Below, piece by piece: positions 83 to 63,286 of a stretch of DNA of 64,000 nt (positions are counted from its first letter, which is position 1; each line of letters begins with the position of its first letter). A program made the translations under genes and the position numbers. The DNA is from Escherichia phage vB_EcoM_CRJP21: sequence record OQ708376.1; one strand, written 5' to 3'. The notes under the pieces were generated by a model. That model made no database searches. It worked only from the letters and a program-made list of their open reading frames with translations, and was not told the origin of the DNA.

Positions 83-361
83 ATGAGAACAAATGAAGTA
101 CTTATTGCTGAAACAATGAAGATGATTTACAATATCACGTCAGCACAGAATATGCCCTATCCAACTAAGTCTTTATTGAGGACTGTGTATCTGGGGATAG
201 TACAGGAGTACTACAAATCCAAGCACCGAAGCATTATTAGTGTTTATCGTGATTATGAAAGGATTCGTATTTTATTCTGGAACAAGAATCGAGTACGTTC
301 TGAATGTGACCTAGTGGACTTTAAATTAGAGAATCTTTATTGCTATAAACAGGGACAATAG
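83..361 (+). CDS. hypothetical protein
   Basis: ORF in track (65-361); first ATG at 83; frame opens after stop at 47-49. Confidence 0.4.
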   Translation: MRTNEVLIAETMKMIYNITSAQNMPYPTKSLLRTVYLGIVQEYYKSKHRSIISVYRDYERIRILFWNKNRVRSECDLVDFKLENLYCYKQGQ

Positions 362-379
362 TTTAATTCATGATATAAT
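352..379 (+). promoter_or_regulatory. sigma70-like early promoter, GGGACA-N13-TGATATAAT
   Basis: GGGACA at 352-357, 13-nt spacer, extended -10 TGATATAAT at 371-379; same architecture recurs 7 more times in window. Confidence 0.5.
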
Positions 380-419
380 AATGGGTAAGGAACAATAATT
401 AACACAAGGAGTGTGTGAA

Positions 420-1148
420 ATGCTTGACCGTATCCGTTTCGCTACAGAGATGGCGAATGAATTAAACATGGCAAATTTCCAAATGTTAACATCAGTAATG
501 GCTGAACATGCATGTGCTTATTCTGTAAGTGGTGTGCAGTGTGGTCAGGAGAATATGTTAGCAGATGTTTATAGTGAAGTGCAAAGTAAGCAATATAGTG
601 TAAAGACATATAAGGATAAGTTTGTTAGTCTTTATATGAACGAAGATATTGCTGAAGACCGTAAATTCACTGATTTTATTATTGAACGACGAGTATCAGG
701 TGTATCTAATCCTAATGCATCAAGCGAGGAAGTTTTTGCAGAAGTACTGAAAGATATATACGAAAATGAATTAAAAAGTAAGAATCATTACAATGTACGT
801 GAAACTAACACAGTGCTCTTGGGATATGATGAAGACGAAGAATACTATTATTTTCGTATGACTGAAGTTCCTTTTGAATACAAATCTCCATATACAACTA
901 CAGTGAAAGAATTTACTGAAAAAAGTAAAAACTTCATGAAGCATGAAGGAAATCGTTGTAGTATAAATGGTTACGACGAAAATGGCATTCACATTTATGA
1001 GTGGGTTCACCCAAATTGTCAGACATACACTCGTTGCTTGAAAAAACGTTATAATTTAGAAGAGCATGAATCATTCTATTTTAAAGTTAAGAAGCAAGGT
1101 TACACTCGCCCCGCCGATTCTGAATTGATGGGTATGATATATTTCTAA
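420..1148 (+). CDS. hypothetical protein
   Basis: ORF 411-1148; ATG at 420 preceded by AGGAG at 405-409. Confidence 0.55.
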   Translation: MLDRIRFATEMANELNMANFQMLTSVMAEHACAYSVSGVQCGQENMLADVYSEVQSKQYSVKTYKDKFVSLYMNEDIAEDRKFTDFIIERRVSGVSNPNASSEEVFAEVLKDIYENELKSKNHYNVRETNTVLLGYDEDEEYYYFRMTEVPFEYKSPYTTTVKEFTEKSKNFMKHEGNRCSINGYDENGIHIYEWVHPNCQTYTRCLKKRYNLEEHESFYFKVKKQGYTRPADSELMGMIYF

Positions 1149-1158
1149 GGAAACTTCT

Positions 1159-1440
1159 ATGGATTTTTATCTACACACATGGACATACGAACAATATATT
1201 ACATTATATCTTGAAATTATTAACACAGAACCTAGGTGTGGTTGTTGGTTCGCAGATATCATAAAAGAGTATGCTGACGAGTTCGAGTTTGTGTATCTTG
1301 GGTCTGATATATTTGTAAAAAGTGTAGGTAAAACCGGACGAATCACTGATATAGATTACGACACTGTTAGTGTGAATTTCTATGTTGATTTTCCTGATGC
1401 TGGAGTTGATGGTGTATATTGTCTTTATGAAATAATTTAA
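1159..1440 (+). CDS. hypothetical protein
   Basis: 93-aa ORF directly after previous gene, followed by terminator. Confidence 0.5.
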   Translation: MDFYLHTWTYEQYITLYLEIINTEPRCGCWFADIIKEYADEFEFVYLGSDIFVKSVGKTGRITDIDYDTVSVNFYVDFPDAGVDGVYCLYEII

Positions 1441-1447
1441 ATTCTTA

Positions 1448-1471
1448 GGCCAGCGTTTGCTGGTCTTTTTT
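1448..1471 (+). terminator. intrinsic terminator
   Basis: GGCCAGC-gttt-GCTGGTC stem followed by TTTTTT. Confidence 0.6.
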
Positions 1472-1484
1472 CGCAGGTACAAAG

Positions 1485-1787
1485 ATGTTCAGTATAGATT
1501 TAATTAACAGTACTATCAAAATGTTGGCTGATTTGGTGAGACAATCCAATGGAACTTTATATCCATCAATGTATAAAATGTTTGACCGATACATCAAGGA
1601 TTGTAACATATCATTATATGGACTTACTGTTGATATAGACGATTACTATGGAATTAATACTTCATATAAAACAGGAATTTTAATTGGTATTAATATAAAG
1701 ATGGGGTATTTCCCTTATTACTGTATAGGATTACCAGATAATACTTTGGTAGAATATCCAGCCAGTACTATTAAATTAAGAGGATAA
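1485..1787 (+). CDS. hypothetical protein
   Basis: 100-aa ORF, compact spacing. Confidence 0.5.
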   Translation: MFSIDLINSTIKMLADLVRQSNGTLYPSMYKMFDRYIKDCNISLYGLTVDIDDYYGINTSYKTGILIGINIKMGYFPYYCIGLPDNTLVEYPASTIKLRG

Positions 1788-1794
1788 AACTAAA

Positions 1795-60989: not shown

Positions 60990-61466
60990 ATGATTCATGA
61001 ACACCGAGGTAATCTGTTTGAATTATTCAGTACTGTTACAGATGATAAAACAGCAATACATATAATTGCTCATGGTTGTAACGCACAGGGTAAAATGGGT
61101 TCAGGTTTTGCAAAAGAGCTAAGAAATCGTTACCCAATGGCATATGATGATTATAAAGCATATGAAAAGGAAATGGGATTTCTTAGAATTGGACAAATTG
61201 CATATTCAGCAATTAACGATAATTTGATTATTGCAAACTGTATTACCCAAAAAATGTACGGTAATGACGGTGCTAAATATGTCAGTTATGATGCAATCGA
61301 CGATGTGTTCAAACATCTAAATTATTTTTGTAAAGTTGATCGAGATGTTCATGTACACTTCCCGAAAATTGGAGCCGATTTGGGCGGCGGTAACTGGAAC
61401 GTTATCAAAGAAATCATTGATCACCGACTGGTCAATGCAGAAAAACACTTATACATTCTAAAATAA
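60990..61466 (+). CDS. macrodomain (ADP-ribose-binding/processing) protein
   Basis: IIAHGCNAQGKMGSGFAKELRNRYP and HFPKIGADLGGGNW fit macrodomain glycine-rich loops. Confidence 0.6.
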   Translation: MIHEHRGNLFELFSTVTDDKTAIHIIAHGCNAQGKMGSGFAKELRNRYPMAYDDYKAYEKEMGFLRIGQIAYSAINDNLIIANCITQKMYGNDGAKYVSYDAIDDVFKHLNYFCKVDRDVHVHFPKIGADLGGGNWNVIKEIIDHRLVNAEKHLYILK

Positions 61467-61485
61467 ACAAAAGGACTTGACAAAA

Positions 61486-61794
61486 ATGACTATGACCGTT
61501 AAACTACTAAACATCAATAACATTGGCCCAGTACTAGCAGTTCTACAAACCGATTCTGCTGAAGCTGTTGTAGTTAACTACCCAGCACAACTAGGGACTG
61601 ACGAAAATGGTGAAATCATTCTTCGTGATTATCTAGAGTTTGTTAGTATGGAGAAAAATGTTATTTTTTATAAATCCAACATTATTAGTGTTAGTGATGC
61701 AAACCCTGCATTAGTTGATGCTTATGTTGATGCTATTAAAGCAATCGAAAACACTCCAAAAGTTTTCGTTCCTGAGAATAAAATCATTCTATAA
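61486..61794 (+). CDS. hypothetical protein
   Basis: ATG 61486. Confidence 0.45.
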   Translation: MTMTVKLLNINNIGPVLAVLQTDSAEAVVVNYPAQLGTDENGEIILRDYLEFVSMEKNVIFYKSNIISVSDANPALVDAYVDAIKAIENTPKVFVPENKIIL

Positions 61795-61806
61795 TAGAGG
61801 TATATA

Positions 61807-62184
61807 ATGGCTGCTAATGACGTTAAAGTAAAAACTATCCAAGCTATCGTAGTACTGAAAGATTCTACACCATCCCCTAAAGAATTAGTAATGGCTGGGA
61901 TGACTATGTTACATCAATACAACCCTGAATCACCTAACTATGTTCAAGAATACGAAGCTAAGAAGTTTAAAGAACATTGGCAGTCATGGATTAAAGATAA
62001 TGAAATGGAGCAGGTAGTTTATGCTGCTGATGACATTTTCGAACTGGAACAAATTGAATATCTAGCTGGTCAGCAATCAGTACCATTGAGCATTTTCGGT
62101 AATGGTGAAGAAGTTCTGGTATTGGGACCATTCACTGCTGATGATATCATTCACTTACTGAGTAATTGTAAGAAAATTGAATAA
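61807..62184 (+). CDS. hypothetical protein
   Basis: 125-aa ORF. Confidence 0.5.
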   Translation: MAANDVKVKTIQAIVVLKDSTPSPKELVMAGMTMLHQYNPESPNYVQEYEAKKFKEHWQSWIKDNEMEQVVYAADDIFELEQIEYLAGQQSVPLSIFGNGEEVLVLGPFTADDIIHLLSNCKKIE

Positions 62185-62400
62185 AAATTCGAAACTGTCA
62201 GGTTACCGTAACAACACGTTGAAGTACAATGATATTAAGTACTGGGTTGATCCTTACTTAAATAAATCATTGTTAATGTACAGAGATAAATCACGAGATC
62301 TATATGGAATATATGTTACTCAGTTAATATATATAATAGATTCCGAGCATTTTACTCCATTGGTATACCTGTACTGCTTGTATAATTCAAAATAACTATT

Positions 62401-62446
62401 AGCACCTCTAAATAATGTATATAAACATTAATGAGGTGCTTTTTTA
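62401..62446 (+). terminator. stem-loop with T-tract (terminator-like), loop contains TATATAAA
   Basis: AGCACCTC ... GAGGTGCT 8-bp stem, 24-nt loop, TTTTTT. Confidence 0.45.
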
Positions 62447-63237
62447 TGTCTTACGATTATATGGGTGGAAACCCTGATGCTCCTAACTTTGACCATCGTG
62501 AAAAACTGAAAGATGTTATCACTCAAATGTTGGGTGCTGGGGCCGTTGAGGTAGAAATTACTGATGGTCAATTAGAAATTGCAATTGATAATGCGGTATC
62601 GAATTACAGAGCGTGGAGTTCTGCTTCTAAAGAAGAAGCATTTTTAAATATGAAATTTTATGATTCACAATCTGTATATATGCTACCAACTGAAGTTGAA
62701 ATTGTTAAAAAGATTTATCGTTATGGTAATGGTTACTTAAGTTCTGGTAGTGGGAACTCAGTAGATCCGTTTTCTCTAGCATTCACCAACACTTACTTAT
62801 TGACTTCAGCACGAAATGCAGGTGGATATGATCTAACTACATATGATTTTAGTTTTCAGTTCCAAGAACTGGTAGGTCGTATGTTTGGTCGTGATATTAT
62901 ATTTCAATTTAATCCAATGACCAAAAAATTAATTATAGATCGTGATATTCGCGGTACTGAAGAAGTACTATTGCACGTATATCATAATATTCCTGAACCA
63001 TTGTTGTTTCAAAGACAGCAAAGTTATCCTTGGCTACGTGATTGGGCATTGTCTGAAGCCATGATTATGTTGGGTCGTAACCGTGCCAAATTTGCTTCTC
63101 TTCCAGGTCCACAGGGAACGTTTTCTATGGATGGTGATACATTACGTAATGAAGGATTACAACTTCAGGAACAGCTTAAAGAGCGTTTGAAACGTTATCA
63201 AGATGGTGCTGAACCACTAGGTATGATTATTGGTTAA
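62446..63237 (+). CDS. hypothetical protein (possibly virion/late protein)
   Basis: ATG 62446 directly after T-tract; 263 aa. Confidence 0.5.
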   Translation: MSYDYMGGNPDAPNFDHREKLKDVITQMLGAGAVEVEITDGQLEIAIDNAVSNYRAWSSASKEEAFLNMKFYDSQSVYMLPTEVEIVKKIYRYGNGYLSSGSGNSVDPFSLAFTNTYLLTSARNAGGYDLTTYDFSFQFQELVGRMFGRDIIFQFNPMTKKLIIDRDIRGTEEVLLHVYHNIPEPLLFQRQQSYPWLRDWALSEAMIMLGRNRAKFASLPGPQGTFSMDGDTLRNEGLQLQEQLKERLKRYQDGAEPLGMIIG

Positions 63238-63245
63238 ATTAAAAA

Positions 63246-63269
63246 AGACTCCTATATGGAGTCTTTTTC
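63246..63269 (+). terminator. intrinsic terminator
   Basis: GACTCC-tatat-GGAGTC then TTTTT. Confidence 0.6.
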
Positions 63270-63286
63270 ACATTATGTGATATAAT
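63259..63286 (+). promoter_or_regulatory. promoter with extended -10 TGATATAAT
   Basis: TGATATAAT 63278-63286; -35 (GAGTCT) weak and overlaps terminator. Confidence 0.4.

Follow-up and report, generated by a model that had tools for sequence, protein, structure and literature searches.

A G-rich box in the -35 register accompanies an extended -10 element at predicted middle-type promoters of PBECO4-like jumbo coliphages

Introduction

The 64,000-nucleotide stretch of Escherichia phage vB_EcoM_CRJP21 analysed here (record OQ708376.1, hereafter the window) carries a recurrent two-part element between its genes, in which an extended -10 sequence of the form TGnTATAAT is preceded by a G-rich hexamer, GGGACA or a close variant, that we refer to as the G-box. 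An original prediction, made from the sequence of this stretch, listed eight such intergenic sites with 13-14 nt between box and TG, likened them to the strong early promoters of T4-like phages and suggested that they overlap with terminators. This raises the questions whether the sites are promoters at all, in which phase of the infection they would act, and which factor reads the G-box.

Over the first 20 kb compared, the window is 99.3% identical to Escherichia phage vB_EcoM_E9.1 and 98-99% identical to slurp01, G17, Sharanji, PBECO4 and phAPEC6. These relatives are jumbo myoviruses of about 350 kb from the genus Asteriusvirus (PBECO4/121Q-type coliphages). Genome-wide counts were made on OR844650.1, a complete, unannotated record of 351,992 bp that is 98-99% identical, and conservation was assessed against Escherichia virus TH47, a member of the same genus with 78-92% DNA identity across the window. 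Motif counts in the window were judged against dinucleotide shuffles and those in the genome against Markov nulls. Mismatches were counted in the two boxes; a position weight matrix was dropped because it over-fitted the exact -10 sequence.

Results

The G-box and the extended -10 element form one strand-specific signal

All eight sites are present in the window, with TGATATAAT as the -10 element at the positions listed and TGCTATAAT at 54361. The claim that each of them carries GGGACA or a close variant holds in part. The hexamer is exact at 352, 25071, 49192 and 59658 and has one mismatch at 15835 (TGGACA) and 54342 (GGGAAA), while the GAGACG of site 8122 is one mismatch away from GAGACA, a common variant genome-wide. 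Site 63259 was rejected as a G-box site, as its GAGTCT belongs to a true terminator (63241-63268), of which it forms the 3' arm. The distance between box and TG is 13 nt, and 14 nt only at 25071, within the range predicted. Three intragenic matches, at 4238, 10380 and 22816, had not been listed before.

By itself, GGGACA is not enriched in the window (15 copies, 14.5 expected), nor did a generic scan of the window for sigma-70 promoters reveal an excess (107 against 110 and 112 against 105). The extended -10 element TGNTATAAT occurs 17 times where 9.1 copies are expected, 14 of the 17 lying on the + strand. It is the combination of box and -10 element in which the signal resides: GGGACA-N12-15-TGNTATAAT was found five times with an expectation of 0.00, and GGGACA-N13-TGNTATAAT seven times at up to one mismatch (0.03 expected), always on the + strand, which is the gene strand, and nine times at up to two mismatches (0.98 expected).

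A motif search over a whole genome, proposed along with the original prediction, confirmed the class in OR844650.1, where the signal is stronger than in the window. There the gene strand has 77 copies of TGNTATAAT and the opposite strand 18. The exact arrangement GGGACA-N13/14-TGNTATAAT accounts for 11 sites on the gene strand, with none on the other strand and none in the Markov nulls. When the -10 element must be exact and the box may deviate at one position at most, the count is 22 (0.33 in the nulls), and in 20 of the 22 the spacing is 13 nt. The class as a whole comprises 25 sites on the gene strand and none on the opposite one, and 19 of the 25 are intergenic.

The 33 intergenic copies of TGNTATAAT carry about 6 bits of information at positions -20 to -14 upstream of the element, while the 44 copies within open reading frames (ORFs) show no upstream profile. 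The conserved 7-mer ends 13 nt before the TG, and its counts among the 33 copies are T 24, G 25, G or A 21 and 11, G 24, A 28, C 19 and A 24. The resulting consensus is T-G-G/A-G-A-C-A, 13 nt of free sequence and (T-R-)TGnTATAAT, with an A/T-rich stretch farther upstream. This places the box in the -35 register, with a spacer of 16 nt from hexamer to hexamer. It is not a canonical sigma-70 -35 element, in which T would occupy the first two hexamer positions: the first is G in 25 of 33 copies, and the second is G or A in 32 and T in a single one. The -10 part, by comparison, has the features of a sigma-70-type extended -10 element, with TG at -15/-14, TGnTATAAT at the listed sites, and a TRTG preference just 5' of the TG (T at -17 in 18 of 33, purine at -16 in 27 of 33). 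The gap from the -10 element to the start codon is usually 27-34 nt, with a Shine-Dalgarno sequence and start about 30 nt downstream. The promoter interpretation thus stands for a recurrent, non-random, strand-specific and mostly intergenic signal, an extended -10 with a G-rich element in the -35 register; its assignment to a strong early class does not, for reasons given below. Judged by these sequence features the G-box sites are real promoters, with transcription starts that are predicted.

Box and -10 element are conserved while the spacer drifts

For the sites at 8122, 25071, 49192, 54342 and 59658, comparison with TH47 yields 32 of 35 identical nucleotides in the 7-mers and 45 of 45 in the extended -10 elements, as against about 65% identity in the spacers, whose length is nevertheless kept except at 25071, where TH47 has N13 and the window N14. 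The clearest footprint is found at 59658, where 7/7 positions of the box and 9/9 of the -10 element are retained next to a spacer of the same length with 5/13 identities, and site 49192 behaves similarly (6/7, 9/9 and 7/13). At 15835 the flanks contain indels, and GTAGACA-N13-TGATATAAT is still in register. Such a pattern is the footprint that is expected of a two-box promoter, as read from the alignments. At 63259 only the terminator and the -10 element are kept. The intragenic site at 10380 is not conserved and is doubtful as a promoter on both counts, whereas around 4238 TH47 is 92% identical, so that conservation there says little.

Overlap with terminators is incidental

The proposal that promoters of this type overlap with terminators turned out to be weak, as no promoter was found in which a hairpin with a U-tract holds the box. 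The sequence at 63241-63268 is a genuine terminator that adjoins a -10 element, and this site lacks a G-box. Between the phoH stop codon and the -10 element of site 25071, an 11-bp perfect hairpin (TGTATGGGACA-TTA-TGTCCCATACA, 25066-25090) has the G-box as its 5' arm; it is kept in TH47, whereas the corresponding position of EJP2 lacks a hairpin. A weaker hairpin at 49191-49209 also holds the G-box. We rejected both as terminators since neither has a U-tract, and the one at 49192 is in addition not kept in TH47. The 25066-25090 hairpin could mark a transcript 3' end, act as a stabiliser or occlude the promoter. Overlap with terminators is thus incidental and not a property of the class.

A different kind of overlap is seen at 46251-46304, where a perfect consensus sigma-70 promoter (TTGACA-N17-TATAAT, 12/12, without TGn) overlaps the end of a tail-protein gene. 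It runs into a terminator hairpin at 46281-46304, so that its transcripts would start within the terminator stem.

A separate class has the features of early promoters

Listing all intergenic TATAAT sites of OR844650.1 revealed a second class that is commoner than the G-box class and that we term the T-box class. Its members consist of an A-tract, TACTTGCA or TTGACA, a 16-nt spacer, gCG/CTG-TATAAT without TGn, and a conserved GTTTTACATC. One 20-kb region has about 24 copies, which precede small ORFs, and some 11 others are found at 290-350 kb, around the gene of a phage sigma factor. The two architectures are nearly exclusive: 19 sites combine TGn with a G-box and 39 a T-box with the absence of TG, as against seven with TGn and a T-box and three with a G-box and no TG (Fisher p = 1.9e-8).

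No G-box site lies at 0-80 kb, the part of the genome with the cluster of 24 T-box sites, and the class does not cluster before small early ORFs. Its sites are spread over 80-175, 190-290 and 310-345 kb and precede clusters for nucleotide metabolism and DNA/RNA repair as well as the gene for a gp55-like late sigma factor. A third intergenic motif, ATAAATA/TATAAATA, occurs 31 times (2.2 expected) and resembles T4 late promoters. The G-box sites resemble T4 early promoters in having strong -10 elements of sigma-70 type within a phage genome that is AT-rich, but the near-TTGACA -35, the upstream A-tracts and the clustering at small ORFs belong here to the T-box class, which fills genome-wide the role of the strong, T4-like early class to which the original prediction had assigned the G-box sites. 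As the T-box class holds these early-like features and the G-box sites lie elsewhere, the latter look like middle-type promoters in a cascade of early, middle and late classes, judged by position.

Some further features of the T-box class and its surroundings were recorded. The approximately 24 near-identical promoters before small ORFs, at about 30-50 kb on the reverse complement of OR844650.1, have the form AAAAAG-TACTTGCAAAC-N11-GCG-TATAAT-GTTTTACATC. In T-box promoters GTTTTACATC, which would be transcribed, is conserved, and AGTACTG recurs just before the -10 element. The small-ORF region (0-83 kb in the same orientation) encodes a protein of the DksA/TraR zinc-finger type, which could be a binder of the RNA polymerase secondary channel, and a protein with a ParE-like toxin domain.

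The same architecture exists in related phages with other boxes

An arrangement of this kind is already on record. For Pectobacterium phage CBB, and by reference also for Cronobacter phage GAP32, three promoter classes were described: RpoD-like promoters with UP-like elements in the small-ORF region, a 'divergent RpoD-like' class ('Promoter 1') before DNA-synthesis genes and the gp55-like gene CBB_244, and a late ATAAATA motif (Buttimer et al. 2017, PMC5259590). Table S6 of that study gives the divergent class as TGAAACG or TGGAACG, 13 nt and TG(G/C/A)TATAAT, and no recognition factor is named (PMC5259590). The likeness to the G-box class is extensive, as in both a 7-mer that starts with TG and ends with AC-purine lies exactly 13 nt from TGnTATAAT; both precede DNA-metabolism genes and, as an orthologous promoter, the gp55-like sigma gene; and both occur alongside a late ATAAATA motif and a canonical TTGACA class whose members have UP-like A-tracts and lie in the small-ORF region. 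The difference is in the 7-mer, TGAAACG/TGGAACG there and TGGGACA/TGAGACA here, with T, G, A and C in common at positions 1, 2, 5 and 6. The G-box class is thus the known CBB/GAP32 architecture with another 7-mer, and in this respect its discovery is incremental. The word 'promoter' does not occur in the papers on Sharanji, fEgEco12 and phAPEC6, nor in that on Klebsiella phage RaK2.

Two orthologous positions allow a direct comparison between lineages. With the CBB_244 protein as query we found the gp55-like late sigma of the present phage group, which is 74% identical, whereas a tblastn search with a T4 gp55 query yielded nothing significant. Its gene is directly preceded by GTGGGACA-N13-TGCTATAAT, and at the same position the box reads TGGGACA in Salmonella phage SE_PL, TGAGACA in E. 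coli phage EJP2 and TGGAACG in CBB, while RaK2 has TTGAAT-N18-TATAAT and PA5oct TTGACT-N17-TAAAAT. For PA5oct, promoters of the type TTGAC/TATAATA are known from RNA-seq. Downstream of phoH, the window has TGGGACA, EJP2 TGAGACA, Turkey5 TTGACA-N13-TGCTATAAT and RaK2 TTGACA-N17-TATAAT; CBB and BF show a terminator only. In the surroundings of the RaK2 sigma gene we found GTTGAACA-N13-TGATATAAT. By lineage, the box is thus TGGGACA/TGAGACA in PBECO4, TH47, EJP2 and SE_PL, TTGAACA in RaK2 and TGAAACG in CBB, next to an invariant -10 element.

The position before the gp55-like gene is also the site of a conserved divergent pair (reverse complement of OR844650.1, 217380-217500) that is kept from PBECO4 to PA5oct. 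In this pair the late motif TATAAATA, present as its reverse complement TATTTATA, would act on the structural gene upstream, and the G-box promoter would act on the sigma gene.

The phage encodes a fast-diverging RpoD-like sigma factor

The sigma factor whose gene lies among T-box promoters, and thus among promoters of the early type, was located through the annotation of Sharanji (gp182). It has 321 amino acids, matches Pfam sigma regions 2, 3 and 4, and has RpoD, SigA and RpoS as its best structural relatives. A tblastn search of the genome with regions 2-4 of E. coli RpoD had retrieved only a spurious match, to an acidic protein of 188 amino acids, which was rejected. As in the cascade of phage SPO1, a phage sigma with a DNA-reading region 4 is thus encoded among early-type promoters. 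Group 2 jumbo phages have been reported to carry an RpoD-like sigma, a minimal sigma and gp33 (Iyer et al. 2021), and the three sigma factors available when that of the host is included would fit three promoter classes.

The putative recognition helix of region 4.2 reads SRSSIHRKY in the PBECO4-like phages, ARSSLHRKY in TH47 and Turkey5 and NRCTIHRRY in EJP2, so that R..(I/L)HR.Y is common to the three TG(G/A)GACA lineages checked in spite of only 36-60% overall identity. The helices of RaK2 (VRGTLHYKF) and CBB (SKATLSRRY) differ from this pattern, with R..LHY.F and K..LSR.Y, and the corresponding segment of sigma-70 is TRERIRQIE. Across the clade the RpoD-like sigma is 35-43% identical (PBECO4-CBB 35%), as against 68-74% for the gp55-like sigma (PBECO4-CBB 74%). 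The fast divergence of the former parallels the variable G-box, and the conservation of the latter parallels the conserved late ATAAATA motif. We also note that in all four phage lineages aligned the RpoD-like sigma has an insertion of about eight residues just before the 4.2 recognition helix.

About 85 phages carry the RpoD-like sigma. According to the fEgEco12 paper (PMC13070987) the sigma factor is absent from phage Ecwhy_1. Among Escherichia phages, as many records match the RpoD-like sigma by tblastn as match the window (32 in each case), and the absence in Ecwhy_1 may be an annotation artefact.

Predicted promoters of the window and their surroundings

The window has a GC content of 30-36% and a GC skew that is positive throughout, in line with nearly all genes lying on the + strand. 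According to the E9.1 annotation, these include genes for RNA ligase, polynucleotide kinase, DNA ligase, phosphatases, dCMP deaminases, PhoH, Sir2, nudix hydrolases, anaerobic ribonucleotide reductase, tRNA nucleotidyltransferase and dNMP kinase, together with a few tail genes and many hypothetical ones. Scans of the window for tRNAs and Rfam families gave no matches. Features are collected in Table 1. The hypothetical gene behind promoter 352 is the first of the cluster that includes RNA ligase and polynucleotide kinase. At 54342 the -10 element ends 11 nt upstream of the ATG at 54381, and the predicted leader is very short; the second extended -10 element at 59741 is a possible tandem promoter. 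The short leaders at these two sites hint at tandem promoters or near-leaderless mRNAs. The roughly 650 nt that follow promoter 49192 (49220-49880) contain only tiny ORFs and are well conserved in TH47; this segment may give rise to a non-coding transcript or encode a set of micro-proteins.

Table 1. Predicted promoters, related matches and terminators in the window. Lower-case letters precede the hexamer or the TG.
Feature	Position	Strand	Sequence	Context
G-box promoter	352..379	+	aGGGACA-N13-TGATATAAT	31 nt before start region of hypothetical gene
Candidate internal G-box promoter	4238..4265	+	tGGAACA-N13-TGCTATAAT	in 3' part of RNA ligase gene
G-box promoter	8122..8149	+	tGAGACG-N13-TGATATAAT	TGAGACA at the same place in TH47
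Intragenic match	10380..10408	+	GGGACA-N14-TGATATAAT	within NinI-like phosphatase gene
G-box promoter	15835..15862	+	tTGGACA-N13-TGATATAAT	before ClpP-like/prohead protease gene
Weak candidate	22816..22843	+	GGGACA-N13-GGATATAAT	GG instead of TG; end of nudix hydrolase gene
G-box promoter	25066..25099 (box 25071)	+	tGGGACA-N14-TGATATAAT	directly after phoH
G-box promoter	49192..49219	+	tGGGACA-N13-TGATATAAT	
G-box promoter	54342..54369	+	tGGGAAA-N13-TGCTATAAT	
Intrinsic terminator	56946..56972	+	AAAGGGACAGATTAATTCTGTCCCTTTTCTT	GGGACA in stem, no promoter attached
G-box promoter	59658..59685	+	tGGGACA-N13-TGATATAAT	after A-tract; upstream of nudix and thioredoxin genes
Second extended -10, no G-box	59741..59749	+	TGGTATAAT	64 nt past promoter 59658, 11 nt before nudix start
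Terminator and extended -10 promoter	63241..63286	+	gTGATATAAT (63278-63286)	directly after terminator 63241-63268; -35 position is terminator arm GAGTCT

Discussion

The similarity of the G-box sites to extended -10 promoters of E. coli sigma-70 comprises TGnTATAAT, the preference for T at -17 and a purine at -16, and a -35 register and spacer that fit sigma-70 geometry. The E. coli promoters are however without a conserved alternative -35 element, whereas a specific and lineage-specific G-rich box is conserved here, which raises the question for the factor that reads it. The hosts of these phages (E. coli, Salmonella, Klebsiella, Pectobacterium and Cronobacter) share essentially the same region 4.2 of sigma-70. 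Boxes that are rigid within each lineage, next to an invariant -10 element and with a common host region 4.2, argue for a reader encoded by the phage. We give about even chances to the reading in which a phage factor, most likely the RpoD-like sigma of the phage itself, recognizes the G-box.

In such a mechanism the core of the host RNA polymerase would be used, a sigma of the sigma-70 family would read the -10 element and its TGn, and a phage specificity factor, most likely region 4.2 of the RpoD-like sigma, would read the G-box. As the phage sigma would be made from early-type promoters, its appearance would bring about the switch from early to middle transcription, much as gp28 does in SPO1. 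The cascade of SPO1 (host sigma-A early, gp28 middle, gp33/34 late) has in common with the present case a phage sigma in an early unit, distinct promoter classes and a late sigma gene behind a middle-class promoter. It differs in that the SPO1 middle promoters deviate from those of the host in both elements, whereas here only the -35-like element deviates and the cascade is predicted. More tentatively, and with somewhat less confidence than in the identity of the reader, we propose for the group 2 (RaK2-like) jumbo phages that a fast-evolving, RpoD-derived sigma has a region 4.2 that co-diverged with the -35 box (TGGGACA, TTGAACA, TGAAACG) of promoters that retained a host-type extended -10 element, and that these sigma/promoter pairs drive the middle phase.

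Several observations weigh against recognition by the phage sigma. The -10 element including -17T/-16R is a textbook extended -10 of E. coli sigma-70, and the phage sigma is without the sigma-70 residues that are tied to the reading of -12 and TG (W433S, W434S, Q437M, H455Y, E458V). Its region 2.4 moreover varies between phage lineages (IYM versus IRQ), while the -10 element does not. With these residues lost and region 2.4 variable, host sigma-70 may be the one to read the -10 element, in which case the phage sigma would have no place in that complex and the box would be a tuned weak -35 element or the target of an activator. Three or four lineages underlie the covariation of helix and box, for which phylogeny is a confounder. 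Turkey5 has TTGACA with TGn in the same register after phoH, and the boxes of RaK2 are TTGACA-like; G-box and T-box may be partly interchangeable over evolutionary time. Note also that we found no transcription-start or RNA-seq data in the literature for Asteriusvirus or for RaK2-like enterobacterial phages, so that timing and start sites are inferred.

The first of the two consequences, a weak -35, amounts to extended -10 promoters used by host sigma-70 alone, in which a G-box that retains the GACA of TTGACA tunes strength or escape, and which would be active from the start of infection with no phage factor. In favour of this explanation, the -10 element is a perfect sigma-70 extended -10 with TRTG preference, the register of the G-box and its 16-nt spacer equal those of the T-box class, and the orthologous Turkey5 and RaK2 sites carry TTGACA; nor was a homologue of AsiA or MotA found, either by tblastn with the T4 proteins or by Pfam among the matches listed. 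A dispensable -35 element should drift, yet the box has G in 25 of 33 copies at its first position and a purine in 32 of 33 at its second, amounts to about 6 bits and is kept relative to TH47. Related phages whose hosts have the same sigma-70 carry different but equally rigid boxes, and the GAAACG of CBB matches TTGACA at just 2/6 positions. We regard this explanation as rather unlikely.

In the second, host sigma-70 would be appropriated as at the middle promoters of T4, where a MotA box is combined with AsiA-remodelled sigma-70: sigma-70 would read the extended -10 element and a phage activator, possibly together with an anti-sigma factor against region 4, the G-box. The parallel is that the MotA-dependent promoters likewise have a good, host-type -10 element, often with TGn, a phage-specific box that replaces the -35, and middle-type genes behind them, including those of replication and nucleotide metabolism, and an activator might be found among the more than 80% of phage proteins without known function. 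The MotA box, (a/t)(a/t)(a/t)TGCTTtA, is however centred at -30, whereas the G-box has another sequence and occupies the -35 register, at 16 nt from TATAAT. Neither T4 AsiA nor T4 MotA gave a significant match by tblastn, and no AsiA or MotA family was among the Pfam matches listed for 449 small ORFs. The best of the weak AsiA matches (window 39520-40086) was discarded, with no Pfam match and only PHROG families of unknown function. Appropriation would furthermore leave the RpoD-like sigma without a promoter class, and we consider it distinctly improbable.

That the sites are no promoters at all, and instead reflect chance, a dispersed repeat or an element acting at the RNA level or with terminators, is very improbable indeed: the box does lie within a hairpin at two sites and one -10 element adjoins a terminator, but the enrichment is far above that in shuffles with all sites on the gene strand, the spacers are unrelated between copies and between relatives, so that they are not a repeat, hairpins occur at a minority of sites with just one conserved, and the sites lie about 30 nt ahead of Shine-Dalgarno sequences and start codons.

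For the PBECO4/121Q group, jumbo coliphages that are candidates for therapeutic use and in which more than 80% of the genes are uncharacterised, these results provide a first promoter map. With T-box promoters as the early type, G-box promoters as the middle type and ATAAATA as the late type, unknown genes can be sorted by their likely timing. The map also makes testable what is recognized by the RpoD-like sigma that marks the group 2 jumbo phages. Should this sigma read the G-box, the clade would supply sigma/promoter pairs with altered -35 specificity, possible orthogonal parts for synthetic biology, and if box and region 4.2 have indeed co-diverged, it would constitute a natural series in which the sigma/promoter pairs diverge solely in how the -35 element is read.

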